From: Polyangiaceae bacterium UTPRO1
GTDB lineage: Bacteria > Desulfobacterota > Binatia > UTPRO1
Assembly: GCA_002050235.1 (NCBI GenBank)
Contig: MWST01000001.1
Coordinates: 4,243-68,242 of the forward strand
DNA length: 64,000 nucleotides
Reading direction: 5' to 3'
Every line of letters starts with the position of its first letter. Positions within the stretch are counted from its first letter, which is position 1. The position numbers and the translations under genes were made by a program. The notes under the pieces were generated by a model that was not told where the DNA came from, did no database searches, and saw only the letters and a program-made list of their open reading frames with translations. Shown one piece after another: positions 6,946 through 46,563 of the stretch.

Positions 6946-7947
6946 ATGGCCGTGAATGGCGACGACCTGAATAGGCTCATCGAGCTCACGTATGCGGGTG
7001 TCGAGGACGGCGCTCAGTGGAGCGCGCTCCTGACGCAGCTCGCCCGCGCGCTGCATGCGGAACGGGTCGAGGTGGAGTCCGAGCCCGACCCCGGGAGGGC
7101 TCCGATGTCCGGCGTCCGCTCGGCGACGGGCTTTCGTTTCGAGGACGACGCGAGCGATCCCCGGATGCTGCGTTGCGCGCTGGTTTCGTGCGGGGAGGCG
7201 ACGACGCTGACGGTCAGGTGGACCGCCGCCGGACCGGCAGGCTCGGCGCGCGCCGTCCGCCTGTGCCGTGCCCTGTTGCCCCACCTCGCCCGCGCCCGAC
7301 ATCTGCACCGACGCGTCTCGGCGGTGGAAGCGGGGCGCGAGGCTGCCGAGGCCGTGCTCGAATTCCTCCCGCTCGGCATCGTGTTGCTCGGGCCCGACGG
7401 CCGCGTCGTCGGGCTGAACTGCCGCGCCGCCGACCTCCTCGACCGACGCGACGGGCTGACGATCGCCGGTGGGCGGCTGAGCGCGCATCCCGCCGCAGTC
7501 GATGCCGAGCTGCGGCGACTGTGCGGCATGGCCGGATCCGGTGGCGTGCTGTCGATCCGCCGGCGATCGTGCGTGCAGCCGCTGTCGTTGACGGTCGTTC
7601 CGCTGGGCGCCGCTCCGGGCGCGGATCGCCGCTGCGAGCGACCGGCGGCGGTCGCCTTCCTCGGCGATCCCGACGTCAAGCTCAGACCGCTCTCCGGCGT
7701 GCTGGCGACGCTCTACGGGCTGACGCCGAGAGAGGCGTCCATCGTCGCCAGGCTCGTGGACGGCGAGACCGTGGCCGACATCTCACGATCGTTGGACGTC
7801 ACCTTGAATACGGTGCGGACGCATCTGAAGCGCGCTTACTCGAAGACGGGAACCAGCGGGCAGAGCAGCCTGCTCCGCCTGGTGCTCCTCGGAGTGAGCC
7901 TGGCGCAGTGTCACCCGATTGCGGGTCGCCGCAGCCGGGCCGCGTGA
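6946..7947 (+). CDS. LuxR-family transcriptional regulator
   Basis: C-terminal LuxR/GerE HTH (LTPREASIVARLVDGETVADISRSLDVTLNTVRTHLKRAYSKTGTSGQSSLLRLV). The N-terminal ~250 aa is an uncharacterised sensory region. The start is uncertain: the ORF track starts at 6859, and I prefer the ATG at 6946 (MAVNGDDLNRLIELTY). Confidence 0.8.
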   Translation: MAVNGDDLNRLIELTYAGVEDGAQWSALLTQLARALHAERVEVESEPDPGRAPMSGVRSATGFRFEDDASDPRMLRCALVSCGEATTLTVRWTAAGPAGSARAVRLCRALLPHLARARHLHRRVSAVEAGREAAEAVLEFLPLGIVLLGPDGRVVGLNCRAADLLDRRDGLTIAGGRLSAHPAAVDAELRRLCGMAGSGGVLSIRRRSCVQPLSLTVVPLGAAPGADRRCERPAAVAFLGDPDVKLRPLSGVLATLYGLTPREASIVARLVDGETVADISRSLDVTLNTVRTHLKRAYSKTGTSGQSSLLRLVLLGVSLAQCHPIAGRRSRAA

Positions 7948-7959
7948 TCCTCGTCGTCA

Positions 7960-9513: not shown

Positions 9514-9611
9514 TCGGAGCACGTTATTTTGTTTTGTGCCGGCTGACGCCCGTGCTAGGTTCCACGCCCGACCGGAGTAATTCGCCAGCACTACACCAGG
9601 GACCCCGCTGC

Positions 9612-12542: not shown

Positions 12543-12553
12543 GGGGAGCGCGC

Positions 12554-15418: not shown

Positions 15419-15424
15419 CGTCCG

Positions 15425-18400
15425 TCAATCGGAGCGATCCTGGAGTCGCGTCGGATCCTGGCGCTCGAACGGGGCGGCATAGCTCGCGCCCCAGCAAAGG
15501 CCGCCGCGGGCCTGGAGCTGTATGGTGAGCGGTGCGGCGAAAGTCGTGGGCGGCGGCATGGCCAAGGCCGAGCCCGATCCCTTGAGGTCGATCTTCGCGA
15601 CGCCGTCGGGCCCCGCCTTCAGGGACACCTGGAGCCGTCCGTCGGGACCGAACGCGTAGTTGCGATACGTGAATCCGCTCGGACGCGCGCTCCAACACGG
15701 CCGTCCGGCGCAGACGCCGGCAGCGGGCATGGCCCACTCCGCGCGCAGGCCGCTGGCGTCGTAGAGGCAGAGCGCGAAGTCCGATCCGTCGGGCTGCGTC
15801 GGGTTGCCGAAGTCGGCGACGGCCGTGGCCGCACCATGGGTCCACTTCCAGCGCACCGTGTCCTTACGGCCGCCTTCGCGATCGCGGAGCTGCACCGACG
15901 CCATGCCCGATCGCACCGGCCGACGGCAACCCGTTGACGGTGCCGGACCGCACTGCGGTCCGGGTGTGGGCGTCGCGGTGGCGATCGTCGTCGCGGATAC
16001 GGTCGGAGTGGCGGTCCGCGTCGGGGTGGGCGTCCGCGTCGCGGTGCGCGTTGCGGTCGGCAGGCGCGGCGTCACGGTCGGGGACGCATCCGGATCGCAG
16101 GGATCTCCGAGCCCGTCGCCGTCGGTATCCTGTTGCTCGATGTTGGCGATGGTCGGACAGTTGTCGAAGGCATCGGGAATCTCGTCGCCGTCTTGATCGG
16201 CGGCTGCTGCGACCGTGATCTCCTGGCGGCAGATCGCAGAGGCGGGACAGTCAGCGGTAGCCGCGCAGGGATCGAGCGCCCGTTCGCAACGACCCGCGTC
16301 GCCGCAGGTCGCCGGGGCTTCGCAGGACGCGTCGTTCGTACAGGTCGTGCCGAGATCCTCGATGCACCGGCCGGCGCTGCTGAAGACGCTGCCGCCTCCG
16401 TCCGGTGCGGTTAGCGGGCTCACGAGCCGTTGGATGTTCTGTCCGGCCGCTACGCAGGTCGCCGGCGCGGTGCAGCTTGCATTGGTGGCGCACGGCCCCT
16501 CGACGGTCTTGCAGACTCCCTGGCCCGGAGCGTCGCGCACGGGCTCGCAGTAGTTGTCCGTGCCGCAGAGACCGGATTGCTGCGGATCGCACGCGATCCC
16601 GAGGCTGCGCGTGCAGCCGCCGGGAGGTACGAAGCACGTTCCTCCCGGGCAGTTGGCGTCGCTCGCGCAAGCGTTGCCGCTCGTGGTGCAGATGCCGGCG
16701 CTCACGCTCCCGAGCACGCGGAGGGGACTCGCCGCACCGCCCGCACGGCCGCGCGCCCGGCCGCCGCTCGGCGGCGCCAGGCGAGGGTTGAAGACCTGCA
16801 GAACCAGGTCGTCCTGATCGCCGTCGCCGTTCAGGTCGCGCCCCTGATCGGCCTCTAGCGTCAGAAACGTCACCGTGTCGCCCTGGACTCGATACGGTTG
16901 CCGGGGGTCGCAGGCTTCGAGCCGACACGGGGTGACCGCCATGGCGGTGTTGAGGAGCCGCCGGCTCTCGACGTCGTAGATCTGCAATACGTCGTCGGCG
17001 ATGTCACCGTCACCGTTCAGAGGGAGGCCGCCTTCGGCGGCTTCGCTGGTGCGGAAGGCGACGAGCTCGCGTCCGGCCGTACCACCGATTACGAACTCCT
17101 CGGCGGCGCAGGCGCGCGGCGTCGTCGTCGCGCCGAGCAGGATCCGGCCGAGGGCGGCGTCGTAGATCTGGAGCACGCGATCGGTCGCATCGGCGTCGCC
17201 ATTGATCCGTGCGGAGCCTTGCGCGCTCTCGTCGGTCAGGAAGACCGCGATCGGGCCGGCGAGCGCGAGCTTCACGGCAGCCTGGCCGACGTTCGCCCAG
17301 CCGCCGCCGTCGAGCGCCCGTACCGCGACGACCGTGTCGGCGCTATCGCCGTCGCCGTTCAGGTCCGCGCCCTCGCCCGCCTCGGAGACGAGAGCGGCGA
17401 CGTGGCTGGCGGAGAGGGCGACGCTCGTTGCGGCGAGGCCGAGATTCTGGACGCTGCCGTTCGCCCAGAGGTGCACGACCTCGTCGAGCGCGTCGGCGTC
17501 ACCGTTCAGGCTCGGGGCAGCCGCGGGACACCCGGGCGCGTTGCCGCCGCTCTCGGGTCGCAAGAACGCCGCGGCGCCCGCCGCGACGCTCACCGCGCCC
17601 GCCGGGCACGACGGTCCGAGCGAGGCGCCGGTCTGTGCGTCGATCACCTGCAGGACGGTATCCGCGAGATCGCAATCGCCGGTGAGGTCGTGGGCGCAGT
17701 CGGTGCGGTCGGGCGCCCATACCTGTGCGCGGATGCCAGTGACGTCGTAATAGCCGACGATCTGGCCGTCGGCGCTGATGGAGGATTCCCCTCCGGCCGC
17801 GTAGATCAACTCGGTGGTCGCCGTCAGGCGATCGCGGCGGTAGAGGGCGAAAGCGCTCCCCGGAAACCCCGGCACGACGTTGGGAGAGTTGTCCGAGCCG
17901 AAGAGGACGTACCGCGCGTCGCCGCTCACGCCGCGCAGTCGGCCCAAGCCGGGCAACTGCACCCCACCGTTGCCGAGGCTGACGCGTTCTGTGATGCCGG
18001 TCAGTCGGTCGCGGACGAAGACGTCGCCGATGCCGTTCGTGTCGCCGGCGACGAGGTTCGACGCGGAGGACGTGAAGGCTACGTACCGGCCGTCCGGAGT
18101 GATCAGCGGCGCGCCGGCGTCGTGGTTCGGCGCCCCTCCCGTGGGCGTCACGTCGATGCGTTCGACGGTGCCGGTCGCCCGGTCGCGCACGTAGACTCCC
18201 GTCCAGTTTCCCGGCGGCACGAGGCTGGCATCGTTGGACGTGAAGACGACGAAGCGGCCGTCGGCGCTGAGAGTCGCGCCGCCGCCGCCGCTCGGATTCG
18301 CCGGCGGAGCGTTGCGGCGGCTCACGCACTCGGTCGAGCCGGTGAGAGTGTCGTGCAGAAACGAGTCGGTGATCCCGTTGGTGTCGTTAGCGACCAGATT

Positions 18401-20815
18401 GGTCGCTTGCGAGTCGAAGGTGACGAAGCGTCCGTCGGCCGAGATGGCAGGGTTCCAGCTGGACCCGTTGCCTTGCTGTCCGGCGCTGTCGACGCTGACG
18501 CGGACGGTGCTGATCGCGCCGGGCTCGTCGAAGATGCCGTCACCGTCCGTATCGCGATCGTGGAGGAAGACGTCGCTGAAGCCGTTGGTGTCGCCCGGCA
18601 CCATGTTGCTCGCGACGCTCGGAAAGGCGACGAAGCGTCCGTCCGGCGAGATGGCGATGCCCGGCCCGCTGCCGTTGTTGACCTCGTTGCCGTTGCCGTC
18701 GACGCTCACGCGGACCCTGGTGCCGGTGGCGCGGTCGTACGCGTAGACGTCCAATACCCCGTTGGTGTCTGCCGGGACCTCGGTGGGGTCGCTGCTGGCA
18801 AAGGCGACGTGGCGGCCCTCGGCGGCGACCACGGCGCCGAAGCTGTGCAGGCCGAGGAAGATGCTCGACGGGGTGCCGGCGCCGGGGCTCTCGAAGACGT
18901 GGCGCGCCGCGTGCGCCTCGGGCGCGCGGACGAACACCCGCCCGTTCGAGAGCACGAGCGGGCGACCGTCGACGAGGGGCGCCGCATCGACGACGCGGGT
19001 GCTCGTTCCCGCGATCGGTACGGCGCCGCCGGGCGTCGAGCGGAAGAGGCGAAGAACGGCGTCGGCGACATCGCCGTCGCCGTTGGCGTCGAGGGCGGCC
19101 TGTGCCGGCTCCGATTCGAGGAAGGCCGAGATCTCGCCGTCGACGGCGAGGGCCGGATAGCTGAACGGGGGCTCGTGGACGCGTGCGACCGCGCGTCCGT
19201 CAGCGCCGCTCGTGCCGATGGGCTGCAGTGTGCCGGTGGCGCGGTCGGTCAGGCGGACGACGTCGTCGAGCCTGTCGCCGTCACCGTTCAGATCCTCGTC
19301 TTGGAGAGCTTCGGACATGACGAAGGCGTTGACGTCGGCGCTCTGGTTGAGGCCATCGAGCGCAACCGGATCGAGCGCTACGGCGGCAAAGGCCGTGCAC
19401 TGGCCGGGAGCGCATTGCGCATCGACGGTGCACTGGTCGAGAGGGCTCGCTCCGCCGAGGCATGTGCCGGCGCGCAGCACCACGGGCCCGACTCCGGCGA
19501 GCAGCCGGGTTTCGAAGTCGAACAAGCCGGCGCGACACGTGCCGCCCGGGCACTCGGAGCTCGATGCGCAGGTCGCGGTAGCGTTCGTACCGCCGACGCA
19601 GGTCGCGATACCGCACGTCCCGTCGGGGCAGTCGGCGCCGCCGTTGCACGGCAGGCCGACGTTCGCGCCGCCGGCGCAGACGAGGCGGCCCGGACTGCGG
19701 CGCGCGATGCGCACGACGCTCGCCGGCGCGTCGGCCGTACCGAAGAGCGTGAGCGCGTCTTCCGCTGTCGGGTCGGTTTGGGGATCGAAGATGGGAGGGA
19801 GCTTCGCGCCGCCGGGCGAGTACGAGCCGAGGAAGGCACGATCGGGGATCCGTAACGGCTGCCCGGATTCCTCGAACGCCTCGACCGTCGTCGAGCCGCG
19901 GAGCAGGCGCGCGACCGGCACCTCGTTCCGGCGTACGAGTACGCCCTGCATCCCGACCGGGAGCAGGACGTTCCCGGCCGTATCGAGGGTGAAGCGGAGG
20001 TCGTCGACGGTCCCCGTGCAGGGCGGGCTCGGGGCCGTGCAGAGCGCTTGGTAGTCGTTGGGTGGCGGCAACGCGGTGAAGTGCGGAAAGACGGGGTGCG
20101 GCATCGGATCGCAGGCGGTGCCGAGATCTGCGAACAGATCGTCGACGCACGCGAGCAGGTCCGTCCGATCGGCGCACGACTCGCTAGCGAGCGCACAGGG
20201 CAGTGCATCGCTCGCCGAGGTTACGGCGATGGCGACCGGTCCCGTCAGGGTCAGGTCGTCGTTCACGCCGCCCGTGCAGGCGCCGCCGGGACAGGTCGCA
20301 TCGTCGGTACAGGCGCGCCCCGCGTCGTTGCCGCCGGTACAGATCCGCAGGATCGGGTCGGTATCGGGAAAGCGGAATCGAAGGTGGTTGCCGTCGCTGG
20401 CTGCGATGTCGAGCGGCTGCCCGAATCGATTCGCGGTGAAGCACGTGGCGCTCGCTACGTCCGGGCGGGCCGCGCAATCCTGGCGTCGACTCTCGAGCGC
20501 GGCGCAGTCGGTGGCCAGGATCGCAACGTGCCGCGGACCGGCGGGCGGCTGGAAGACGACGGTGACGACTTGCTCCGCCGCCGTCGTCGCGAACCCCGGT
20601 GACCCCGCGTGGCAGCCCGGCTCGCGCGTCAGCTGTATCCAATCGCCCGGGGAGGCGAACGGGCGATCGGCGGCGGCGAGCGTGGAGCGGAAGGACTGTT
20701 GCGTGCCGGGAATGACGTCGCAGGTCGCGAGGCACCGATCGGGGTGTCCGAGCCGCAGGGCAGCGATCGCCACGGAGGCGAGAGCGTGCCTGCGGAAAGA
20801 GCGAAGGGTGCGCAT
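15425..20815 (-). CDS. 1796-aa secreted multi-repeat protein (Cys-rich modules, DxNGDGD calcium-loop-like repeats, PD40/TolB-like beta-propeller repeats, thrombospondin type-3-like repeat, Pro/Thr linker, C-terminal domain)
   Basis: Signal peptide [23 protein letters not shown]. Six repeats of DGR[FYH]V.F.S....V..DTNG..D.[FY]..D..TG (PD40-like). Eight copies of [DN]G D[GAC] D..D.V[LV] motifs (e.g. [17 protein letters not shown]). At least 8 copies of C..[DSN]..C[PA].G.C. One [35 protein letters not shown] segment (TSP3-like). Confidence 0.85.
   Translation of the reverse strand: [1796 protein letters not shown]
15955..16095 (-). repeat. Low-complexity Pro/Thr linker coding region in the 1796-aa protein
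   Basis: Encodes [45 protein letters not shown] on the minus strand. Confidence 0.9.
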
Positions 20816-21090: not shown

Positions 21091-23418
21091 GTGCGACGAG
21101 ACATTGGTTGGTCTCGCAGGTGGTTTTCGGTTGCGGCAGCGGCGCTTCTCGCGGGCGCGACGGCGTGCGGCGGCGGTGGTGGCGGCGGCAACGAGAGCAC
21201 CCGACCGACCGCACCGGGGGCGAGCGCGAATGCGCTCAACGTGACGATCGTCGATGCGGCGATCGCCGGCGACGATCGGCCGACCGTCCGCTTCTTCCTG
21301 ACCGACGGACAGGGGGCGCCGCTCTCGCCCGACGGCGTCCGTATTCGCTTCGTGATCGCGGTGCTGCAGGGCGACGGCGGCGAATACCGCGACTACATCA
21401 CCACCGTGCAGACGAGTCCAGACACCAAGATCTCGGCGACGCAGGCAGCCGCCGAGGATGCGGCGCAGGGTACCCTCGAAGATCAGGGCGGAGGCCTCTT
21501 CCGTTACACCTTCGAGAAATCGTTGCCGCAAGGCTACGTTCGGGATGCTTCACACCGGGTCGCCATCTTCGCCGACACCACCATCCTCGACGTCGCCTAC
21601 GTGTCGAACGACGTGCTCGACTTCGTACCGGCGGGCGGGGCGCCGAGGGCGACGCGCGACATCGTTCGCACCGAGACGTGCAACGGTTGCCACGACCCGC
21701 TCGGCGCGCACGGCGGAGCGCGTCGCGACGTCCGGCTCTGCGTCGCCTGCCATTCCACGGAGATCACCGACTTCGCTACCGGAGAGACGACCCCGCACAT
21801 CGATCCCGACACCCGGAACGGCATCGGTTTTCCGGAGCTCATCCATAAGATCCATCGGGGCGAGAACCTGCCGAGCGTGGAGAGCGGACACCCATACCAG
21901 ATCATCGGCTATCGCCAGAGCGTCATCGATTTCTCCCACGTCGCGTTTCCGCAGGACATCCGGAACTGCGAGACCTGCCACAGCGGCGGCGCCCAGAGCG
22001 ACTTCTTCGCGACGCGCCCGTCGCGAACGGCCTGCGGCTCGTGTCACGACGACGTGAACTTCGCGAGCGGCGCCAACCACGGCGGCGGCCCGCAGCCGAC
22101 CGACGGTAGCTGCTCGTCGTGCCACCTGCCGGACTCCGGCCACGAGTTCGATCTTTCGGTCGTCGGGAGCCACACGGTGCCGCAGAACTCGCGGCAGGCC
22201 GCAGGTGTGCGGTTCGCACTCCTCGAGGTTACGAGCGCCGAGAGCGGCGAACCCGTGGTCGCGCCCGGCCAGCACCCGCGCGTGCGCTTCACGATCACCA
22301 GCGCCGCCGGCGACCCGATCCCGCCGGCCGCCATGAACTCGCTGAGCCTCGTGCTCGGCGGCCCGACGGCGGAGTATTCGGCGCAGGACTACGACGGCAA
22401 CGGGACCATCGTACCCGGCGACCCGTCGAGCCCGTGGACCCCCGGCGCCGAGACCTTCAAGTCGGAGAGCGCGATCAAAGACGCGCAGGGTCCCGACCAG
22501 TCGGGCGCCTGGACCTACACCTTCAAGGCCGCAGTGCCGCCGAATGCGACGGGCAGCTACGTGATCGGCATCGAGGGCTACCGGTGCGCCGCGATCGCGG
22601 GGGCGAACCAGCGGCGCGGCGGCTCGAACTGCGACGGCACGGCCGATCCGAACGGCAACGGCCGCGAGGATCCCGGCGAGGTGTTCAACCAGGTTCGCGA
22701 CGCGGGCCACAACGAAGTGCTACCGTTCCCGGTCTCCGCCGCCGCAGTCGCGTCGCGCCGCGAGCCCGTAGCGATCGACAGGTGCTCCGTCTGCCACGGT
22801 GTCTTCTCGAAGGATTTCCTGGTCCACGGCGGCATCCGCAACGAGACGCGCTACTGTCCGGTCTGCCACAATCCGTCGAACGACACGCTGAGCCGCGAGC
22901 TGCCGCCGGCCGGCGAGACGGCGATGACGAGCCCGATCGACTTCAAGGTGATGATCCACAAGATCCACCGGGGTGAGGAACTAGCCGATCCGTACGTCCT
23001 CTACGGCTTCCCGACCGGAAAGTTTCCGAACCAGACCTCGACGGCGACGAACTTCCAGGAGCTTCTCTACCCCGGCGATCTCCGCGACTGCGAGGCGTGC
23101 CATCTGCCGGGCACCTACGTGCTCTCCCCCGGCGCGGGGATCCTCGGGCCCGGGGTGCTGCCGTCGACGGTGCGCTCATTCCTCCAGGGAGAGCGTGACA
23201 AGACGGTCCTCGATGTCTTCACGACGCCGCCGACGATCGCGGTCTGCACGAGCTGCCACGACGACGTCGACTTCACGACCGGCGCCAACCATGCGGCGGG
23301 ACCGCAGAGCGAGGGGAGCTGCGTCGACTGCCATGGCGTCGGACGGTCTCTGAGCGTCGAGCGCACGCACTTCCCCGGCGTTGCGCGCGAGGCGCGCATC
23401 CTGCGGCCGAACAACTGA
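21091..23418 (+). CDS. Decaheme c-type cytochrome lipoprotein, MtrC/OmcA-like architecture
   Basis: Ten CXXCH motifs in a 5+5 arrangement: CNGCH, CVACH, CETCH, CGSCH, CSSCH, then CSVCH, CPVCH, CEACH, CTSCH, CVDCH. The first lies at 21679-21693 and the last at 23320-23334. The two halves are separated by a ~200-aa heme-free region. Duplicated signatures are present (LIHKIHRGENL / MIHKIHRGEEL; C..CHDDV.F..GANH..GPQ...GSC..CH twice). The signal peptide ends ...AAALLAGATAC and is followed by a Gly run, so it is a probable lipoprotein. The start is uncertain (GTG 21085 or 21091, after GAGGGGGG); the track start 21010 is a TTG inside a promoter-like hexamer. Confidence 0.85.
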   Translation: MRRDIGWSRRWFSVAAAALLAGATACGGGGGGGNESTRPTAPGASANALNVTIVDAAIAGDDRPTVRFFLTDGQGAPLSPDGVRIRFVIAVLQGDGGEYRDYITTVQTSPDTKISATQAAAEDAAQGTLEDQGGGLFRYTFEKSLPQGYVRDASHRVAIFADTTILDVAYVSNDVLDFVPAGGAPRATRDIVRTETCNGCHDPLGAHGGARRDVRLCVACHSTEITDFATGETTPHIDPDTRNGIGFPELIHKIHRGENLPSVESGHPYQIIGYRQSVIDFSHVAFPQDIRNCETCHSGGAQSDFFATRPSRTACGSCHDDVNFASGANHGGGPQPTDGSCSSCHLPDSGHEFDLSVVGSHTVPQNSRQAAGVRFALLEVTSAESGEPVVAPGQHPRVRFTITSAAGDPIPPAAMNSLSLVLGGPTAEYSAQDYDGNGTIVPGDPSSPWTPGAETFKSESAIKDAQGPDQSGAWTYTFKAAVPPNATGSYVIGIEGYRCAAIAGANQRRGGSNCDGTADPNGNGREDPGEVFNQVRDAGHNEVLPFPVSAAAVASRREPVAIDRCSVCHGVFSKDFLVHGGIRNETRYCPVCHNPSNDTLSRELPPAGETAMTSPIDFKVMIHKIHRGEELADPYVLYGFPTGKFPNQTSTATNFQELLYPGDLRDCEACHLPGTYVLSPGAGILGPGVLPSTVRSFLQGERDKTVLDVFTTPPTIAVCTSCHDDVDFTTGANHAAGPQSEGSCVDCHGVGRSLSVERTHFPGVAREARILRPNN

Positions 23419-23437
23419 GCGACGAGCGAGGGCGGGC

Positions 23438-23752
23438 GTGGTGCGGCGGTGGTGCGGAGCGGTTCTCGGGGCGGTCGCGATCGTGGCGCTCGTCGGCTGC
23501 GGCAAGGGCAACGACGACGGCGAGGACTTCGGGAACCTGATCGCCGGAGCGCAGGGGACGCAGCTGACGCGCGCCGAGCATCCGACTGGATGGGGACGGA
23601 GCGAGTGCTTCCTTTGTCATCCGCTCGAGGAGATTCATCGGGTCGATCGCAGCGGCACCGGTACGTTGCCGCTCGCCGACATTCGCCGCTTGGTCGATCG
23701 CGATCGCCTGGGGAGCTGTCCCCTGTGCCACGGCAGCAACGGCGTGAATTGA
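23438..23752 (+). CDS. Small diheme c-type cytochrome lipoprotein
   Basis: Signal peptide with a good lipobox (AIVALVGC) and two CXXCH motifs (CFLCH, CPLCH) in about 85 mature residues. GTG start follows GAGGGCGGG, 19 nt after the decaheme stop. Confidence 0.7.
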   Translation: MVRRWCGAVLGAVAIVALVGCGKGNDDGEDFGNLIAGAQGTQLTRAEHPTGWGRSECFLCHPLEEIHRVDRSGTGTLPLADIRRLVDRDRLGSCPLCHGSNGVN

Positions 23753-23756
23753 CGGC

Positions 23757-25064
23757 ATGAGCAGCGGACGCGTCCTCGCAGCAGTGGTGGCCGTGGCGGC
23801 GGCGTTGCCGGCGCCGCCGGCGATCGCGGGAGCACCAGCCCGTTGGGCGCCGGCCGCGAGCGGCTTCTACGGCAACGTGTACACCGCCTTCCAGGCGAAC
23901 ACGCCGCTGCGCCGCCCGTTCGACGACGACAAGAAGGTGTTTCCCTTCTACCAATATCTCGACGTCCACGGGTACGATCCCGCGCACGGACTGTCGTCGT
24001 CGGCGTTCGTGCGCGCGCGCGAGGTCGCCAACGGCGACGATGTCACCCTCGATGTCTACAATGCGAACCTCGAATATCGGGGTCTCGGCGACGCCGGCGA
24101 CGCGCTGCAGGTGCGGGCCGGACGCCAGGTGCTCGCCGAGGGAACGAATTTCCTGCTGATGGACGGAGCCTACGTCCGCGCCAAGCCGCTACGGGGGCTC
24201 GATGTGGTCGCGTACGGCGGCTACCAGGATGCCGATCTGCAGCCGTACCCGGAGAAGCCGGAGCGGAGCTTCGGCGTCTTCGGCGCCACGCTGCGCTCGA
24301 CGCAGTTCCTGGGCGCCCTCGCAACGGTCGGCTACCACGGCCTGACGCCGCAGGACTCGGCTCCGCGCCACTTCGTGGACCTGGGCTTCAAGCGCGCCGT
24401 GCCGTACACCGACTTCGCCGACGTCTACAGCCGGGTGGAGCTCGATGTCGGCGAGGCGGTGCCGGCGTTCGCCAACGTCGGCGTCGGCCTGAGCCTGGCG
24501 CGGCCGCTCTACCTGAATCTCGAATACGACAGCTACGAACCCGACCCCGATCAGGACCGGTTCCTGCAGGATCGGATCTTCGACGTCTTCGCGCTCGACC
24601 GTCTGCAGGAGGCGCGCATCGGGATCACCTACAAGGCGACGCGCTGGCTCGATGTGTCGTCGAGCTATTCGTTCGCGACCTACGACAAGCAGAACGACCA
24701 TGCGACGCACGGCCACATCGCCAAGCTCGGCTTCAACTGGAACTTCTGGCGGCGACTCGGGCTGCGCGCGTTCAACGGCGTCTACCTGATCGACGGCGGC
24801 GGCGACGATCGCGCGGTCGGCGTCAACTGCGGCGTCTCCGAGGAGATCCTCCGCGGCCTCGAGATCCATGGGATCTTCGCCTTCGCGAACTTCGACAGCA
24901 TCACCGGCAAGCACGGCAACGCCTACAGCTACATCATCGGCACCCAGTACCTGGTGGTGCGGAACGTCTCGCTCCTCGCCGAGATGGAGTACAACACCAA
25001 TCCCGATTTCGAGGTCGACGTCCGCGGCAATTTCGGCCTTACCTACACCTTCAGCTGGAGCTGA
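23757..25064 (+). CDS. Outer-membrane beta-barrel protein (candidate porin component of the cytochrome conduit)
   Basis: 435 aa with signal peptide MSSGRVLAAVVAVAAALPAPPAIAGA. Aromatic-rich amphipathic strands alternate throughout (LDVYNANLEYRG, VVAYGGYQD, IGITYKATRWLDVSSSYSFATY, LGFNWNFW, GNFGLTYTFSWS at the C-terminus). There are no heme motifs. The call rests on composition and pattern, not on a recognised named family. Confidence 0.65.
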   Translation: MSSGRVLAAVVAVAAALPAPPAIAGAPARWAPAASGFYGNVYTAFQANTPLRRPFDDDKKVFPFYQYLDVHGYDPAHGLSSSAFVRAREVANGDDVTLDVYNANLEYRGLGDAGDALQVRAGRQVLAEGTNFLLMDGAYVRAKPLRGLDVVAYGGYQDADLQPYPEKPERSFGVFGATLRSTQFLGALATVGYHGLTPQDSAPRHFVDLGFKRAVPYTDFADVYSRVELDVGEAVPAFANVGVGLSLARPLYLNLEYDSYEPDPDQDRFLQDRIFDVFALDRLQEARIGITYKATRWLDVSSSYSFATYDKQNDHATHGHIAKLGFNWNFWRRLGLRAFNGVYLIDGGGDDRAVGVNCGVSEEILRGLEIHGIFAFANFDSITGKHGNAYSYIIGTQYLVVRNVSLLAEMEYNTNPDFEVDVRGNFGLTYTFSWS

Positions 25065-25068
25065 CCCG

Positions 25069-25701
25069 GTGCGACGATCGACCTTGCGGATCTGTCTGTT
25101 CTCTCTCGTGCTCGCGATCGGCGTGGGCCTCGGCTGCCGGAAGCTCGGGCAGGGCGTCGACTGGGGCTGGCGTGCGGAGCGGCCGGCGGACGCGCTCGCG
25201 GTGTTCTCGCATCAGGGGCACAAGAAGGTCTTCGCGGAGCGGCGGATCCAATGTTTCGCGTGTCACACCATGTCGGCGCGGCTCGAGGACGAGCAGGAGG
25301 CCGCCGCCGCGATCCGAGCGTCCAGGGAGGTGTTCAACGGCGGCAAGGAGGCGTGCCACGCCTGCCACTACAATCCCGAGGTCGGCAACACCGCTCCCGA
25401 CCGCTGCGGGATCTGTCACGCCGATGTCGAGGAGGTCGAGCCGGCGAATCACAACTTCGACTGGATGAGCCGCCACCTGGTCTTCGCCAAGAACGACCCC
25501 GCCAGCTGCGAGAGCTGCCACCAGCAGCGCTACTGCCAGGACTGTCACACCCGTCGCGACCAGACGGTGCGCAGCTACCACGACACCAACATCCGCTTCA
25601 CGCACGGCATCGAGGCGCGCGCGAATCCCATGAAGTGCGGGCAGTGCCACGCTCGCGGCTTCTGCCAGCACTGCCACACGGAAGGCGGCTATGAGAAGTA
25701 G
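25069..25701 (+). CDS. Heptaheme c-type cytochrome (c3/c7-like paired motifs), possibly lipoprotein
   Basis: Seven CXXCH motifs: CFACH, CHACH, CGICH, CESCH, CQDCH, CGQCH, CQHCH, including the tandem pairs CESCHQQRYCQDCH and CGQCHARGFCQHCH. The N-terminal hydrophobic segment ends GVGLGC, an imperfect lipobox. GTG start at 25069, 4 nt after the barrel stop; the track start 24868 overlaps the barrel gene. Confidence 0.8.
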   Translation: MRRSTLRICLFSLVLAIGVGLGCRKLGQGVDWGWRAERPADALAVFSHQGHKKVFAERRIQCFACHTMSARLEDEQEAAAAIRASREVFNGGKEACHACHYNPEVGNTAPDRCGICHADVEEVEPANHNFDWMSRHLVFAKNDPASCESCHQQRYCQDCHTRRDQTVRSYHDTNIRFTHGIEARANPMKCGQCHARGFCQHCHTEGGYEK

Positions 25702-26293
25702 GGGAGCACTCGCCGTCGCCGCGGCGCTGCTCCTATTCGGAGCGGTCGGAGCGCATGCGGCGGAGAAGGACAAGGACGAGGACAATCCGCACGAGAAGAT
25801 GACGCGGAGCCGGAGCGTTTGCATCGATTGCCATACGCGGGTGCCGAAGCCGGGAGAGCACGCCGCCGATTATTCCCTCGTCGATGCGCCGTCGGAGAAC
25901 TGCCTTGGTTGCCACAGCGAATCCGAGCACGCCGGCGCCCGGGCGCACCTCGGCCGCGAGTTCGCGAAGGAGGCGCCGGAGGTGGCCGCCGGGTTGCCGC
26001 TCGACGAGCACGGCAAGATCGCCTGCTTCACCTGCCACGATCCGCATCCGGCGGGCGTGATCGAGGGCCGCACGGTGCATGCGTCGGCGGTGAATACGGA
26101 GACGCGGACGTTTCTCGCGGCGCGGGCGCTGCCCGCGGGCGCCGAGCGCCTCGAGCCTTCCGCCGAGTTCGGGGCGCTGCTGCGCTTGCCACCCGGTGTC
26201 GGATGTGCAGGTTGTCACCCGGCAACGAAAGAATCACCTTGGAGGGAGAAGACGCTATGGAGCGAACGCATTCGGGTCTTGCCGTATTGGTAG
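25691..26293 (+). CDS. Tetraheme c-type cytochrome, periplasmic
   Basis: Signal peptide MRSRGALAVAAALLLFGAVGAHA and four CXXCH motifs (CIDCH, CLGCH, CFTCH, CAGCH). The start overlaps the preceding gene by 11 nt. Confidence 0.8.
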   Translation: MRSRGALAVAAALLLFGAVGAHAAEKDKDEDNPHEKMTRSRSVCIDCHTRVPKPGEHAADYSLVDAPSENCLGCHSESEHAGARAHLGREFAKEAPEVAAGLPLDEHGKIACFTCHDPHPAGVIEGRTVHASAVNTETRTFLAARALPAGAERLEPSAEFGALLRLPPGVGCAGCHPATKESPWREKTLWSERIRVLPYW

Positions 26294-26730
26294 TCGCGGG
26301 TCTCGTCGGAGCGCTGGCGAGCGCCGCGGCAGCAGCCGACGATCCCGGCGTGAAGGTGTTCATCGAGAAGCGGTGCTACACGTGTCATACGGTGGCGTCG
26401 CATGCGGCCGAGATCGAGAAACAGAAGGCCGCTTTCATCAAAGCGAGCGGCGCCGAAGCGGATGAAGAGGGCGAGGACGAGAAGGATAGCAAGGGTGGCG
26501 ATCTCTCCGACGTCGGTGCGAAGCGCACTGCCGCCTGGGTGGACGAGATCCTGAAGAACCCGAAGCCGAGCTTCAAAGATACTCCGGAGTGCCAGCGCCT
26601 GGCGAAACAGAAGGATCGGAAGAAGTTCAAGGGCACGCCCGAAGAGCTGACGGCGCTCGAGAAGTTCTTGGGCAGCCTGAAGGGAGAGGCGAAGCAGGCT
26701 GCGGGCTTCACCTCCTGCCTGAAGGACTAG
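26257..26730 (+). CDS. Monoheme c-type cytochrome with Lys/Glu-rich region
   Basis: ATG at 26257 is preceded by GGAGGGA. Signal peptide MERTHSGLAVLVVAGLVGALASAAAA and a single CYTCH. The charged segment EADEEGEDEKDSKGGD is followed by AAWVDEILKNPK, which resembles class I cytochrome c. It overlaps the tetraheme gene by 37 nt in another frame. Confidence 0.7.
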   Translation: MERTHSGLAVLVVAGLVGALASAAAAADDPGVKVFIEKRCYTCHTVASHAAEIEKQKAAFIKASGAEADEEGEDEKDSKGGDLSDVGAKRTAAWVDEILKNPKPSFKDTPECQRLAKQKDRKKFKGTPEELTALEKFLGSLKGEAKQAAGFTSCLKD

Positions 26731-26737
26731 TCGGCAG

Positions 26738-27415
26738 ATGACGTGGGACTGGTTGCCGCTCCTCCTCGTCGGCGCCGACGCCGGCGGGGAGGCCGCGGAA
26801 CCCGGACTCGCAACGCTGCGCATCGGCGCGGGAGCTCTCTGCGTTCTGGCGATGGCGCTGGTCGCGTACGGCACGCTCTGGCGCCGCGACGGCGTTAGCC
26901 CCGGGGCCCGCGTCGCCATGATGATCGGCTTCCTCGTGCTCTCGCCGCTCGCCTACGTGGTGAACGCGGGCCTGGCGATTACGGACGCCAAGCCCGTCGC
27001 ATTCTGCAACTCGTGCCACGTCATGGAGGCGTACGTCGCCGATCTGCATGATCCCGACAGCGAGCACCTGGCGGCGCAGCACTACCAGTTCCGCTGGATC
27101 GCCGAGAACCAGTGCTACACCTGCCACTCCGACTACGGGCTCTTCGGCGACTTCCAGGCGAAGATCGCCGGACTCAGGCACGTCTGGCACAACACCATCG
27201 GCGACTACGAAGTGCCGTTGAAGATCCGCGGCACCTACAACAACCAGCGCTGCCTCTTCTGCCACGGCCCCGTGCGCTCGTACCGCGAGGTGCCGGAGCA
27301 CGAGAAGAACGCGGCGCGGATCGCGACCAGCGAGATGTCGTGCATCGGCGGCAGCTGCCACGTGTCGCCGCATCCGAAGGCCGCGGCGAAGGCGGAGTCG
27401 GCGCATGCTTCCTGA
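26738..27415 (+). CDS. NapC/NirT/NrfH-family-like membrane-anchored multiheme quinol dehydrogenase
   Basis: Two N-terminal hydrophobic helices. Heme motifs are CNSCHVM (a CXXCHXM signature as in NrfH heme 1), CYTCHSDYGLFGDFQAKIAGLRHVWHN (NapC/NirT-like), CLFCH, and a non-canonical CIGGSCH (CX4CH) at 27341-27361. Confidence 0.75.
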   Translation: MTWDWLPLLLVGADAGGEAAEPGLATLRIGAGALCVLAMALVAYGTLWRRDGVSPGARVAMMIGFLVLSPLAYVVNAGLAITDAKPVAFCNSCHVMEAYVADLHDPDSEHLAAQHYQFRWIAENQCYTCHSDYGLFGDFQAKIAGLRHVWHNTIGDYEVPLKIRGTYNNQRCLFCHGPVRSYREVPEHEKNAARIATSEMSCIGGSCHVSPHPKAAAKAESAHAS

Positions 27416-27638
27416 CGAAGGAGCGCGTGCGGCGGCCCGGAGCCGGCAACGCGTGTGGCTCGTCGCCGCCGGACTCCTGCAGATCGTAGCGATGCTGCTG
27501 GTCCTCGGCGCCCTCGTCCGTCTGACGCCGCTCACCATGACGTTCTCCGTCGGTGGCGCCGGGATACTGCTCGTCCTCGCCTGCGGTATCTACCTAGTGA
27601 ACGTCATGATGGACCTCCGCCACCGCAGCATTTTCTGA
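27405..27638 (+). CDS. Small two-helix membrane protein, last ORF of the cytochrome operon
   Basis: 77 aa with two clear hydrophobic helices (VWLVAAGLLQIVAMLLVLGALV; VGGAGILLVLACGIYLVNVMM). G/C dominates the third codon positions, as in the neighbouring genes. It overlaps the preceding gene by 11 nt. No recognisable family. Confidence 0.45.
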   Translation: MLPDEGARAAARSRQRVWLVAAGLLQIVAMLLVLGALVRLTPLTMTFSVGGAGILLVLACGIYLVNVMMDLRHRSIF

Positions 27639-29129
27639 CGGCCCTACTTGAGGCTGACGTTGCGGCTGTAGGTGGCCGCTACGAGGCGCTGCGAATGCGG
27701 TCGCCTGCCCAGGCCCGAGCTCCGGAGCGGCTGTCTGCATCCGGCGCGTGCGCAAAATCGCCTCGCTGGCGGCGAAGCGCGAGTCCACGAGTGGGCTCGG
27801 TGCCACCCCGAAGGCCACCAGCACCAGAATGAGGGCGCCGAACGTCCAAGTCTCGCGCGGCTGCAGCTCGAGCGACAGCGCTGACGGTACCGGCGGATCC
27901 GGTCGTCCGCAGAACAAGGCGAAGTACATGCGCAGGACGGCGAGGCCGGTCAGCGCCGCCGCGATCACTACGGCAAAACCCATGAAGGGGAAGAGATCGA
28001 TGGCGCCGTCGACGAGGAGCTCCTGCCCCGTGAAGCCCATCGTTCCCGGAAATCCGGTGCATGCAAGGCCGGTGAGCAGGAACGCGATCGCGAGCAGCGG
28101 CATGCGCCGGTAGCCGCCGTGGTATGTCGCCAGGTCCAGACGGCCGCGACGCGATTCGAGCACGAGCACCGAGCGTGCCAGGCCGGCGAACGCCAGCCCT
28201 GCCGACAGCCATACGAGTAGACCGCCGGCGAGCGCGCTCGCGCTCGTGCAGTCGAGACCGGCCATCACCAGTGCCGACTGGCTCACGAACAGGTATCCGC
28301 AGGCTCGGCGTGCGCTTGTTTGAGCCAATGCGAGGGCCGCGCCGTAAACGGCGGTGCCGAGCGCCAACGTGGCGATCGTCCGCAACAACGCCGGGGAGGC
28401 GTGCGGCACGATGAGCACGACGGTGATGTATGCTCCCAGTTGCGGAGCAGTGAACAGGATCGCAGGACCGAGCCGCCCGCGATCGAATACTTCCGGCACC
28501 CAGGCGTGAAACGGCAGAATGCCCTTGCGCGCCAATGCTCCTCCTGCCATGAGCCAGAGCCCGAGCGTTTCGGCGCCGGTGCCGCGCGCGCTCGGAGCCG
28601 TCACGAGCATCACGCCGACCGCGAACAATACTGTGGAAGCGCCGAGATAGGCTGCCGCGACCCGGCGCACGCGCCGGTGTGCCGGGGCAGCGAGTGCCGC
28701 GAGCAGCGTCCACACCGAGGCCGTCGCCAGTACTACCAGCGCAACCGCGCTTTCGGTCAGGAACGACGCGAATGTGATCAACGTGGCGAGCGCCGTACGC
28801 CGGAGGCCGCTTCGGTCGAGTGCCGCGCGCGGCGTCACGCCGACGGTGAGAAGCCATAATCCTGCGGCGAACGGCAGCAACGCCGCCGAGAACGAGTCGA
28901 TGCGCAGGATCGATTCGTTGCCGGCGCGCCAGGCTAGCGCCGTGGTCGGAATCGAAAAAGTGCGCAATCGCGGCGAGAACGCAGCCCCTAGCGCGATCGC
29001 CGTCATTATCGATGCGGCTCCGACCGCCAGCGAGCGCAGCCGCTCGACGTCGAGGCGCACGTACGACACGACAATGACGGTCGCGGGGCATGCGGCGAGC
29101 GCGGCCAGCCAGAGCGGGGCGCTAGTCAT
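27594..29129 (-). CDS. Second proton-conducting antiporter-like membrane subunit (NuoM/NuoN/MnhD-like, PF00361-type) of the DAB-like operon
   Basis: 511 aa, polytopic, with a divergent version of the K..P.H.W.P motif (ARKGILPFHAWVPEVFDRG) and a TM-embedded Glu (FLTESAV). An 8-nt overlap with the upstream gene suggests translational coupling. The C-terminal ~45 aa are low complexity. Confidence 0.7.
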   Translation of the reverse strand: MTSAPLWLAALAACPATVIVVSYVRLDVERLRSLAVGAASIMTAIALGAAFSPRLRTFSIPTTALAWRAGNESILRIDSFSAALLPFAAGLWLLTVGVTPRAALDRSGLRRTALATLITFASFLTESAVALVVLATASVWTLLAALAAPAHRRVRRVAAAYLGASTVLFAVGVMLVTAPSARGTGAETLGLWLMAGGALARKGILPFHAWVPEVFDRGRLGPAILFTAPQLGAYITVVLIVPHASPALLRTIATLALGTAVYGAALALAQTSARRACGYLFVSQSALVMAGLDCTSASALAGGLLVWLSAGLAFAGLARSVLVLESRRGRLDLATYHGGYRRMPLLAIAFLLTGLACTGFPGTMGFTGQELLVDGAIDLFPFMGFAVVIAAALTGLAVLRMYFALFCGRPDPPVPSALSLELQPRETWTFGALILVLVAFGVAPSPLVDSRFAASEAILRTRRMQTAAPELGPGQATAFAAPRSGHLQPQRQPQVGPSENAAVAEVHHDVH

Positions 29130-30483
29130 CGTGCCCGTCGCTCCCGTCGTCCGGCGGCGCCGGCGAGGCGCCTGCCGCCGCGGCGCACAGCCTCTGGTCG
29201 AGAATCGTCAAGCGTCGCGTGAGCGTCGTGAATGGAGCGACGACGAGGCGGTCGAGCCAGCTATCGAGGAATCCGCGCTCGAGCGCGAACAGGTACAGCC
29301 CCAGCTGGGCGCGACGCGGGGCCAGCGCTTCGATGTAGCCGCGCGCCGGTGTCGGGCGTCCGCCCAGCGCATCCTCCATCCCGTGCAGGTCGTGCAAGAC
29401 GTTCGGTGCGCTCAGAAATTGCAGTAGCCGGAAGCACGCGTGTCCCGAGAGGTGCAGGAAGGCGATCGTGCTCCAGCCGAGCGCGATTTCGACGACGATG
29501 ATCCCGACCTGCGTCAGCGCCGCGTATGCCAACGACGACTTGACGTCGCTCTGCACGCGCGTAGCCATCGCGGCGAAGACGGCCGTGCTTGCGCCGGCAG
29601 CGCCGGCCAGCAGGCGCGCGGCCATCGCCTGCTCGAACAGCGGCCCCGCTCGCAGCAGCAGGAAGCAGCCGGCATGAATGGACAACGATCCGTAGTATAC
29701 GGCACTCGATGGAGTTGGTCCCTCCATCGCTCGGGGTAGCCAGCCCGAAAACGGCAGCAGGGCGCTCTTGCCGGCTACGGCGACGATGATGAGGACGGCG
29801 ATCGAGGTCACCTTGACCGGTGTGAGACCTGCCAGCGACAGCGCCGGCGCGCCGCTGAACAACAACTCCAGACTATCGCTGCCGGCGACGTGCCGGAGCA
29901 GTACCGCCGCTGACAGTAGCGCCGCATCGCTCACGCGGTATATGGCGAGTACGCGCAGCGCATTCGATACCGGCGCCGGTCGCTCGTGAAAGAACCCGAC
30001 GAGCAGCGCCGAGCTGAGCCCGACGAGCTCCCAGCCGACGAACAGCACTTCGACATTGCCGGCGAGGGCGACAAGCAGCATGCCGGTCGAGAGCATCGCG
30101 AGCAGGACGAAGTAGCGGTTGTAGCCGGGTTCGCAGTGCAGGTAGCGGTTCGAGAAGGCCGCGACGATGCCGAGGATGGCGGCCGACAGTGCCGCAAAGG
30201 CGAGCGACATCCGGTCGACCAGGAACTCGAGGCCAATGGCGTGGCTGTACGAGCCGGACCAGGCACCGTATGACAAGAGGCGCAGCTCTGCCGGCGTCGA
30301 TTCGTGGATGGCGAACGCGATGCAGAGGGCCGTGCACGCCAGGAGCATCGCGGTACCCGTCAGGAACGCAGTCCAGCGTTCAGTGAGCGGTCGCCCCGCG
30401 ACCGAGGCCGCGCCGAGCAGCGCGAACAGGCCGACTGGGGCGGCGACTGCCGTCAGCACGAGTGCCGCGAGCGCGCCGCTCAT
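29122..30483 (-). CDS. dabB: DabB-like proton-conducting membrane subunit (NuoL/MnhA-like, PF00361-type)
   Basis: 453 aa, polytopic, with NuoL-type signatures VLFVGWELVGLSSALLVGF and AGKSALLPFSGWLPRAMEGPTPSSA. A 4-nt overlap with the upstream DUF2309 gene. Confidence 0.75.
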   Translation of the reverse strand: MSGALAALVLTAVAAPVGLFALLGAASVAGRPLTERWTAFLTGTAMLLACTALCIAFAIHESTPAELRLLSYGAWSGSYSHAIGLEFLVDRMSLAFAALSAAILGIVAAFSNRYLHCEPGYNRYFVLLAMLSTGMLLVALAGNVEVLFVGWELVGLSSALLVGFFHERPAPVSNALRVLAIYRVSDAALLSAAVLLRHVAGSDSLELLFSGAPALSLAGLTPVKVTSIAVLIIVAVAGKSALLPFSGWLPRAMEGPTPSSAVYYGSLSIHAGCFLLLRAGPLFEQAMAARLLAGAAGASTAVFAAMATRVQSDVKSSLAYAALTQVGIIVVEIALGWSTIAFLHLSGHACFRLLQFLSAPNVLHDLHGMEDALGGRPTPARGYIEALAPRRAQLGLYLFALERGFLDSWLDRLVVAPFTTLTRRLTILDQRLCAAAAGASPAPPDDGSDGHDD

Positions 30484-46444: not shown

Positions 46445-46563
46445 CGCACGAGACGACCGCGGCGCGGACCCGGCAACGAGCCCGGATCGCGTCCCGGTGC
46501 CGCAAGCGTTGCGTTCTGCGGCGCTGGCGTCGAGTCGCACGTCTGCTACTCTGCGCGACCTCC

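Follow-up and report, generated by a model that had tools for sequence, protein, structure and literature searches.

An eight-gene, 28-heme operon of the Binatia bacterium UTPRO1 as a probable electron conduit that combines an MtrC-family decaheme cytochrome with a compact outer-membrane barrel

Where a gene cluster encodes an MtrC-type surface cytochrome and lacks MtrAB, which proteins could carry electrons between the quinone pool and the cell surface? This question is raised by eight genes at positions 21091 to 27638 of the window, a stretch of 64,000 nucleotides (nt) from contig MWST01000001.1 (GenBank assembly GCA_002050235.1) of Polyangiaceae bacterium UTPRO1, a member of the Binatia. 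A preliminary description, made from the sequence alone, had read the cluster as an inner-membrane-to-surface electron conduit. Our analysis supports that reading: the encoded parts cover each compartment, and no finding refutes it. Taken as a whole, the operon is best explained as a self-contained trans-envelope conduit of the porin-cytochrome kind, most likely working outward, and we regard this combined reading as probable. That the operon encodes a trans-envelope electron conduit is, taken by itself, quite likely; outward flow through it is the direction toward which we lean.

All eight genes lie on the + strand, with starts placed at 21091, 23438, 23757, 25069, 25691, 26257, 26738 and 27405, and they are separated, in order, by 19, 4, 4, -11, -37, 7 and -11 nt. 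The open reading frame (ORF) table therefore bears out exactly the gaps of 4 to 19 nt and overlaps of 11 to 37 nt given in the preliminary description. The motif count also agrees with its total of 28 heme sites: genes 1 to 7 contain 10, 2, 0, 7, 4, 1 and 3 CXXCH motifs, 27 altogether, and there is one CX4CH motif (CIGGSCH). The coding frames of the operon genes have a high GC content at third codon positions (GC3), in a window whose GC content is 0.67 to 0.73. Beyond the six cytochrome genes, CXXCH occurs across the 64 kb in three stop-to-stop frames, all of low GC3, one of them an alternative frame within the operon and the other two lying over NuoL/M-like genes. Inside the cluster, intrinsic terminators gave no signal beyond shuffle expectation; upstream of it no consensus sigma-70 promoter was found, and nowhere did the promoter scan exceed shuffle expectation.

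The signals for export divide the products among the compartments of the envelope. Genes 3, 5 and 6 have Sec-type signals, genes 1, 2 and 4 have a conserved lipobox cysteine, and genes 7 and 8 have transmembrane helices; the operon thus encodes three lipoprotein cytochromes, since the heptaheme protein carries a lipobox too. Neither CXXCK motifs nor open heme sites were found among the operon cytochromes. In genes 2, 4 and 5 there is an invariant extra histidine for each heme, which fits hemes of electron transfer rather than of catalysis, and all hemes appear to be bis-His ligated. At the family level, Pfam, NCBIfam and the PDB gave no match for the barrel, the heptaheme, the diheme or the small membrane subunit.

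Synteny was surveyed by scanning one genome per GTDB species with a profile of the barrel protein. The scan found 27 species, labelled Binatia, Dadabacteria, Thermodesulfobacteriota or "delta proteobacterium", and genes 1 to 5 stand in the same order at every locus where the contig permits. By tblastn, most loci have an adjacent gene 6, about two-thirds of them have gene 7 and about two-fifths have gene 8. Orthologue identities span 88% to 27%, and the heme counts per protein (10/2/0/7/4/1/3+1) are nonetheless invariant in the orthologues of 27 other species. The flanks differ: cytochrome c maturation (ccm) genes in the HR37 lineage, a tetraheme protein with 4Fe-4S and NrfD proteins in the closest relative (L001), and DabAB in the window. 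Because the flanks vary between genomes, we take the operon itself to be the conserved unit. From the lack of a consensus sigma-70 promoter it might be argued that the cytochrome genes stand together by chance or through decay, neither a functional unit nor expressed; however, the genes are tightly spaced and overlapping, their coding frames have high GC3, and intact ORFs, at 42 to 88% identity, recur with the same order and heme counts in 27 species. The conserved synteny effectively refutes a chance cluster, and we consider this explanation scarcely credible.

The identity of the surface component is the firmest part of the argument. Gene 1 (21091..23418, +; 775 amino acids [aa]) encodes a decaheme lipoprotein that, by its sequence, is a bona fide member of the MtrC family and is proposed to be the terminal cytochrome at the cell surface. 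The MtrC/OmcA architecture first ascribed to it is confirmed by a match to the OmcA/MtrC decaheme model TIGR03507 (411.4 bits; cutoff, 209.3), by two stretches that match PF22113 (MtrC/MtrF pentaheme domain, II/IV), and by sequence matches to the structures of MtrF (3pmq; E = 4.8e-27) and MtrC (6r2q_C; E = 1.2e-18). The hemes fall into two groups of five, at residues 197 to 341 and 565 to 744. At the N terminus the lipobox LAGATAC is followed by GGGGGGG, and the cysteine and a poly-Gly/Pro linker are kept in orthologues. The start chosen is a GTG at 21091 preceded by a Shine-Dalgarno-like run, GAGGGGGG; the Joint Genome Institute call begins 81 nt earlier, at 21010 (802 aa), and we favor 21091 because the lengths of the orthologues and the Shine-Dalgarno-like motif agree with it. 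Between hemes 5 and 6 is a CX14C pair (residues 499 to 514), in a position analogous to that of the CX8C in domain III of the Shewanella proteins. In OmcA and MtrC of the Shewanella clade, the CX8C disulfide is a flavin-binding switch. The CX14C pair is conserved in the Binatia/HR37 clade only; it is absent from the Dadabacteria clade, from the more remote relatives described below as type B, and from the MtrC of Bryobacteraceae.

The second component on which the argument depends is the product of gene 3 (23757..25064, +; 435 aa), which has a signal peptide and is predicted to be an outer-membrane beta-barrel of about 22 strands; it is proposed to be the sheath of a trans-membrane heme wire. 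Its sequence has no Pfam, NCBIfam or PDB match, 6R2Q_B included; PF11854 (MtrB/PioB) did not match at E ≤ 1, and hhalign gave a probability of 0.5% between its profile and a PF11854-positive MtrB-like protein. The AlphaFold2 model, built from a 29-sequence alignment, is all-beta with 22 long strands and a mean predicted local distance difference test score (pLDDT) of 78.7, and Foldseek returned outer-membrane barrels alone, so that the beta-barrel named in the preliminary description is well borne out. The best template modelling scores, 0.50 to 0.53, were for the FimD usher barrel, above porins of 16 to 18 strands; the top matches include MOMP, OccK, AlgE and chitoporin, and MtrB was not among the top 50.

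Since these top matches are general and substrate-specific porins, it can be envisioned that the barrel is an ordinary porin and that the cytochromes are an electron buffer, the whole forming a redox module of the periplasm or the surface that would handle soluble compounds, such as chelated metals, flavins, or sulfur or nitrogen oxyanions, or serve in detoxification. The number of strands speaks against this, as 22 exceeds the 16 to 18 of diffusion porins, and so does the strict covariation of the barrel with the MtrC-like and heptaheme genes over a deep divergence. Proteins of the MtrC family are, moreover, surface lipoproteins, and gene 1 keeps the cysteine and poly-Gly tether.

What might fill the barrel is suggested by gene 4 (25069..25701, +; 210 aa), which encodes a heptaheme lipoprotein that we propose as the threaded wire. 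Its seven CXXCH motifs are accompanied by seven invariant extra histidines (H48, H51, H97, H128, H136, H171 and H179), so all of its hemes are probably bis-His ligated; the conserved lipobox cysteine, Cys23, makes it a predicted lipoprotein, which adds to the preliminary account. In both clades, its gene always adjoins the barrel gene. Each heme of this protein corresponds to about 27 aa, compared with about 30 in MtrA, and a geometry calculation gives its seven hemes an estimated span of about 55 to 60 Å, enough to cross the outer membrane; for a barrel of 22 strands, standard geometry predicts a C-alpha diameter of about 40 Å. The barrel diameter, the residues per heme and the heme span together make the heptaheme a plausible insert, and its location inside the barrel lumen is plausible from gene adjacency and by analogy with MtrAB. 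For the soluble-compound module, it counts in favor that this placement is drawn by analogy.

A relationship between the heptaheme and MtrA is suggestive only. In PDB searches the heptaheme gave marginal c3-type matches (HmcA, E = 0.0018), and its profile did not match MtrA at E ≤ 10; the AlphaFold2 model, from a 37-sequence alignment, had a pLDDT of 50.9 and was unusable. With hhalign, the heptaheme profile matched an MtrA-like protein at 92% over 131 columns, but we do not claim homology, because CXXCH-rich proteins cross-match in the controls: a CbcL-like protein scored 85% (34 columns), an MtrC-like protein 64% (68 columns) and another multiheme protein 7%.

At the inner membrane, gene 7 (26738..27415, +; 225 aa) encodes a membrane-anchored tetraheme cytochrome of the NapC/NirT/NrfH superfamily, proposed to act as quinol dehydrogenase or, should the flow of electrons be reversed, as quinone reductase. 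Its earlier assignment as a NapC/NrfH-like membrane quinol dehydrogenase is supported at the superfamily level (PF03264, 36.8 bits; cutoff, 24.1). It falls below the equivalog cutoffs for NrfH (TIGR03153, 39.7 against 134.2 bits), NapC/NirT (22.7 against 310.6) and TorC (21.5 against 478), and it scores far under the cutoff with CymA-type models. Hydrophobic helices lie at about residues 23 to 47 and 58 to 82; there are three CXXCH motifs, with a conserved CX4CH as the fourth heme site. The first heme motif is an invariant FCNSCHVM, the CxxCHxM signature of NrfH, and the closest PDB sequence match is NrfH (2j7a_C; E = 8.7e-5). While passing the superfamily model only, gene 7 thus appears nearer to the NrfH type than to CymA or NapC.

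Gene 8 (27405..27638, +), which shares its first 11 nt with the end of gene 7, encodes a 77-aa protein and is proposed to be a small subunit of the dehydrogenase. The two helices ascribed to it earlier correspond to hydrophobic, predicted transmembrane segments at about residues 15 to 40 and 45 to 72. It matches no Pfam or NCBIfam family; orthologues, which keep a TP.T...S motif, were found by tblastn behind the NapC-like gene in 13 loci from 11 distinct species.

NrfH-type proteins usually serve periplasmic reductases, which again would suit a module for soluble compounds. However, gene 7 has no NrfA partner, no catalytic subunit (NrfA, Hao, Otr or a molybdoenzyme) occurs in about 30 syntenic loci, and the hemes, all of bis-His appearance, include neither a CXXCK nor an open site. 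Weighed as a whole, the soluble-compound module is very improbable. A module of the nitrite, hydroxylamine or sulfite reductase type was likewise considered and rejected: there is no orthology to one, no catalytic subunit in the window or the syntenic loci, and no CXXCK.

Three smaller cytochromes could connect the two membranes. Gene 2 (23438..23752, +) encodes a diheme lipoprotein of about 85 aa when mature, proposed to supply a connector heme pair at the outer membrane. Its start is uncertain (23381, 23438 or 23441); it has two CXXCH motifs and two invariant extra histidines, its lipobox (LVGC, LLGC or VSC) is invariant in 28 orthologues, and it has no Pfam or NCBIfam family. Gene 5 (25691..26293, +; 200 aa) encodes a predicted soluble periplasmic tetraheme cytochrome, the proposed relay, which has four CXXCH motifs, conserved extra histidines and a Sec signal without a lipobox, and which matches c7/c3-type Pfam models. 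Its C-terminal tail is also conserved, as W..(K/R)(F/I)...(F/L)(S/T/P)-Y/W, with the final aromatic residue in most orthologues, and is similar to the beta-signal of outer-membrane proteins or to a docking peptide.

Gene 6 (26257..26730, +; 157 aa) encodes a class I monoheme cytochrome c (PF00034, 28.4 bits; cutoff, 21.3), proposed to be a second periplasmic carrier or a branch point. In an alignment of 20 orthologues, RCY(T/S)CH, RK(K/R)FKG and two extra non-heme cysteines are invariant, and no Met or His is conserved downstream as a distal ligand; RK(K/R)FKG stands where MPxF would be expected. The heme may therefore have His/Lys ligation or be five-coordinate, and the protein may have a disulfide.

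We postulate that the parts act as follows. In the inner membrane, the NrfH/NapC-type tetraheme protein and the gene 8 product would exchange electrons with the quinone pool; the tetraheme and monoheme cytochromes of genes 5 and 6 would carry electrons over the periplasm; the heptaheme lipoprotein, passing through the barrel of about 22 strands, would wire the outer membrane; the diheme lipoprotein would bridge a junction; and the MtrC-type decaheme would be the terminal electron-exchange site on the cell surface.

The barrel and its partners belong to a wider family, which helps to separate the core of the module from its more variable parts. When 1.84 billion representatives were searched exhaustively with the profile, the barrel family comprised 189 clusters at E ≤ 1e-3, 13 of them below 1e-30, and the remote relatives that were looked up were all unnamed metagenome proteins. 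Five remote loci (L030, L031, L033, L034 and L035), reached by barrel lookup or by a heptaheme search, are here called type B. Their barrels, which in L030 and L031 are 24 to 25% identical to that of the window, sit between an MtrC-like decaheme and a heptaheme lipoprotein of about 215 aa; each locus then has a diheme lipoprotein and an additional lipoprotein with four to six hemes, and all of the five but L033 have a called tetraheme. At the end of L031 are a homologous NapC-like tetraheme and a transmembrane protein of 65 aa that takes the position of gene 8 and has no BLAST homology to it, and in L033 the module is preceded by a CbcL-like protein (11 hemes plus cytochrome b) and an ImcH-like one. 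Type-B relatives also have a class I cytochrome c beside the cluster. Since these distant loci keep the core and swap the inner-membrane partner, the sequence comparisons indicate that decaheme, barrel, heptaheme and diheme, in most cases together with the tetraheme, are an ancient module that is combined with varied quinol dehydrogenases.

The surface cytochrome has a different set of relatives. The nearest relative of gene 1 examined outside the clades is 39% identical and comes from a member of the Bryobacteraceae (L032), where, in the one locus examined, it belongs to a canonical mtrC-mtrA-mtrB cluster with a 10-heme MtrA-like protein and a 674-aa, PF11854-positive MtrB-like protein, which shows that the surface cytochromes of the operon and of the canonical cluster are one kind of part. 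Gene 1 is 33 to 34% identical to the type-B MtrC-like proteins, by pairwise identity only, which is lower than to the MtrC of Bryobacteraceae. This greater closeness to canonical MtrC than to type B hints at a transfer of the surface cytochrome from one type of conduit to another.

Two observations on the surroundings of these remote loci may be added. A regulator of the Crp/Fnr family is encoded upstream of the type-B cluster in L030 (1-1182, with hemerythrin) and near the canonical mtrCAB of L032 (1105-1788), and L030 and L034 share upstream genes resembling CarboxypepD_reg and aldehyde decarbonylase.

The preliminary description cautioned that the direction of electron flow cannot be read from the sequence, and this caution stands. 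Outward flow would mean the respiration of insoluble or extracellular acceptors by a facultatively anaerobic Binatia bacterium, with Fe(III) or Mn(IV) oxides, humics, electrodes or partner cells as candidate acceptors. We favor it because relatives of the operon are associated with quinol oxidases of the CbcL/ImcH type, because L030 is accompanied by the Crp/Fnr-type regulator and hemerythrin, because the monoheme cytochrome is Met-less, and because the lifestyle of the host is anoxic and denitrifying. CbcL and ImcH are the Geobacter-type quinol oxidases used in outward extracellular electron transfer (EET). The barrel of the window is 100% identical to a protein of Polyangiaceae bacterium UTPRO1. 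This host is represented by a metagenome-assembled genome (MAG) of 69.8% GC, with which the GC content of the window agrees, from an anammox granule reactor, with expressed nir, nor and nos genes (PMC5460018), and its lineage is now placed in the Binatota order UTPRO1 (PMC8262859).

The same hardware could operate inward, in electron uptake or in the oxidation of Fe(II), Mn(II) or minerals. Electrons would then enter at the surface decaheme and the path would split in the periplasm, one branch using the monoheme cytochrome c to reach a terminal oxidase or denitrification enzymes, the other passing through the NapC/NrfH-like protein, in reverse, to the quinone pool. The pairing of a class I monoheme with a NapC-type tetraheme is also that of MtoD and CymA of Sideroxydans mtoAB, the type-B relatives have a class I cytochrome c beside the cluster as well, and the aerobic and denitrifying chains of the host lineage could accept such electrons. 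Directly downstream in the window, a DabA/DabB inorganic-carbon pump hints at CO2 assimilation; however, its adjacency is not kept in L001 or L002, and as evidence of autotrophy the DabAB neighbor was rejected for this lack of conservation. RuBisCO or another autotrophy marker was not seen in the scanned parts of the window. Gene 6, moreover, is without the Met ligand that class I cytochromes of high potential typically have, and in relatives the outer module is paired with CbcL/ImcH-like quinol oxidases and Fnr-type regulators. On balance, we judge inward operation to be unlikely.

Several considerations nevertheless weigh against an outward conduit of the design proposed here. All of the evidence is computational, and the carriers are all uncultured MAGs. 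Direction is weakly constrained, given that a monoheme and a NapC-type protein occur here as they do in the Fe(II)-oxidation cluster mto of Sideroxydans, and Mtr-type conduits are known to be reversible. The case for the heptaheme within the barrel is built on adjacency and the MtrAB analogy, its model reached a pLDDT of 51, and MtrA is soluble, whereas the candidate insert here is a lipoprotein. Finally, predictions for the Binatota point mainly to aerobic methylotrophy and alkane degradation (PMC8262859).

The surroundings of the operon have features of their own. In the Bacterium HR37 lineage (L002 and L022; 43% GC, from hot springs), the operon is embedded in cytochrome c maturation genes; in L002, ccmA and ccmB lie upstream and ccmC, ccmE and ccmF downstream (at about 7355-8741 and 16520-19755). 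In L001, which is 74% identical, the region downstream (17115-20021) encodes a membrane-anchored tetraheme protein of 233 aa, a 4Fe-4S protein and an NrfD-type subunit, a trio that looks like a second quinol-interacting module and is reminiscent of complexes of the NetBCD/NrfBCD type. In the window, the segment from 27594 to 33479 on the - strand runs convergently toward the cytochrome operon and shares 45 nt with the 3' end of gene 8. It contains DabA (30480-33479; PF10070, 769 bits) followed by two NuoL/M-like ORFs (29122-30483 and 27594-29129), and looks like a DAB-type inorganic-carbon pump in which DabB is apparently split in two.

Upstream of the operon, 9471 to 20815 is occupied by three very large, secreted-looking proteins, which are not kept beside the operon in other genomes: two Sortilin/BNR proteins with Cys-rich DUF4215 repeats (9471-12542 and 12173-15418, + strand) and, on the - strand and divergent from the operon, a 1796-aa protein with Cys/Gly/Asp repeats and a thrombospondin-type-3-like DxDxDG tail (15425-20815). 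Farther downstream, a single ORF of 1529 aa (47800-52389, + strand), preceded by an HlyD-like adaptor (46291-47790), joins a full AcrB-type resistance-nodulation-division pump (1153 bits) to two C-terminal OEP/TolC-like repeats; this is either an unusual fusion of an inner-membrane pump and an outer-membrane channel or the product of a missed stop codon.

Has such a conduit been described before? In the literature on EET in Binatia, Binatota and Dadabacteria, we found no description of an operon of decaheme, diheme, barrel, heptaheme, tetraheme, monoheme and NrfH-like proteins; the search yielded a one-line remark on Dadabacteria in the FeGenie paper and one CbcL-type homologue listed by Zhong & Shi. 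The Binatota genome survey mentions neither heme nor Mtr (PMC8262859). Baker et al. demanded mtrC, mtrA and mtrB together and would therefore have missed the operon, and FeGenie scores MtrC together with MtrAB (PMC7005843). Field surveys have seen mtrC more often than mtrB, which was attributed there to divergence; the operon offers annotation pipelines a concrete alternative set of partners for mtrC without mtrB. The discovery is unsurprising in kind, since recent work shows many uncharacterised porin-cytochrome clusters. That it represents a third, previously undescribed family of outer-membrane conduits, defined by an MtrC-type decaheme, a compact barrel of about 22 strands, a lipid-anchored heptaheme, a diheme adaptor, and an NrfH-like dehydrogenase with a novel two-helix subunit, is a proposition that we hold to be evenly balanced.

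If the proposed reading is true, EET would be assigned to widespread lineages of soil, sediment, hot springs and bioreactors, and cryptic exchange of electrons with minerals, humics or other species would occur in the Binatota and Dadabacteria, two phyla now regarded as aerobic methylotrophs or heterotrophs. Metagenomic signals of "orphan mtrC" would be explained, and surface cytochromes would be documented as modular parts that are swapped among unrelated trans-membrane modules, since the MtrC part is common to canonical MtrCAB and the barrel and wire are not. A functional conduit of a 435-aa barrel and a 210-aa heptaheme would stand as a compact design beside MtrCAB and the Geobacter Pcc/Ext systems, of a size that makes it appealing to structural biologists and to those who wish to build smaller synthetic electron conduits. 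Biochemical questions are raised by a lipoprotein as candidate barrel insert, by a Met-less class I cytochrome, and by an NrfH-type dehydrogenase with an extra small membrane subunit.

Among the closest known systems is Shewanella MtrCAB (6R2Q) with CymA. The two share an OmcA/MtrC-family decaheme lipoprotein of 5+5 hemes as the surface part, and the proposed plan of a NapC-superfamily quinol dehydrogenase, a relay, a heme-wired barrel and a surface decaheme is also common to both. The preliminary description had nonetheless held that the composition is unlike that of MtrCAB and CymA, and this proved correct: the barrel has 435 aa and about 22 strands, compared with about 700 aa and 26 strands in MtrB, and neither the MtrB/PioB model PF11854 nor the hhalign comparison links the two. 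MtrA is replaced by the 7-heme, 210-aa lipoprotein, whose remote similarity to it is ambiguous. No protein reached the threshold of the DmsE/MtrA family (TIGR03508), for which the best score in the operon was 16 bits, from gene 5, against a cutoff of 192; gene 1 alone has 10 hemes. The operon adds the diheme lipoprotein, the tetraheme, the monoheme and the two-helix membrane protein, and it includes its own quinol dehydrogenase, which is NrfH-like (CxxCHxM) and not a CymA equivalog. In gene 1, the Cys pair is CX14C where that of Shewanella is CX8C, and it is missing in the Dadabacteria clade.

The Geobacter clusters (OmaB-OmbB-OmcB, ExtABCD, ExtEFG and ExtHIJKL) resemble the operon in combining a smaller barrel of some 400-odd aa with periplasmic and lipoprotein multihemes. 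In ExtCD, a Geobacter cluster has more than one lipoprotein cytochrome, as does this operon, and to our knowledge an MtrC-type surface cytochrome is lacking in the Geobacter clusters. The earlier claim that the operon differs from OmaB-OmbB-OmcB holds for heme numbers and sizes, the sole basis of comparison: 7 + 10 + 2 hemes here, against 8 + 12 or 12 + 5 + 12 there. A further likeness is that the relative L033 pairs its module with CbcL-like and ImcH-like inner-membrane cytochromes, and FeGenie has reported operons in Dadabacteria that resemble Geobacter porin-cytochrome genes by BLAST (PMC7005843).

The MtoAB-MtoD-CymA system of Sideroxydans and Gallionella is reminiscent of the operon in that a porin-cytochrome module is accompanied by a class I monoheme and a NapC/CymA-type tetraheme. 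Mto consists of MtrA and MtrB homologues, a decaheme and a large barrel, usually without MtrC; the operon, in contrast, has MtrC and no MtrAB, and its monoheme is without a Met ligand. Also comparable are newly reported clusters that, like this one, are known from genomics only and have an Mtr-like organisation with low identity to model systems: the porin-multiheme clusters EET1-4 of uncultured phyla in peat Acidobacteriota and Verrucomicrobiota (bioRxiv 10.64898/2026.05.27.727921) and the syntenic porin and multiheme neighborhoods that MHCscan presents as bulk statistics (PMC11475568). The canonical Bryobacterales Mtr-like type is represented in the peat study by EET2, which corresponds to L032, not to this operon. 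Like porin-cytochrome systems in general, the operon encodes together an outer-membrane barrel, a periplasm-facing multiheme and a surface lipoprotein multiheme, and this set of parts is kept across two clades.

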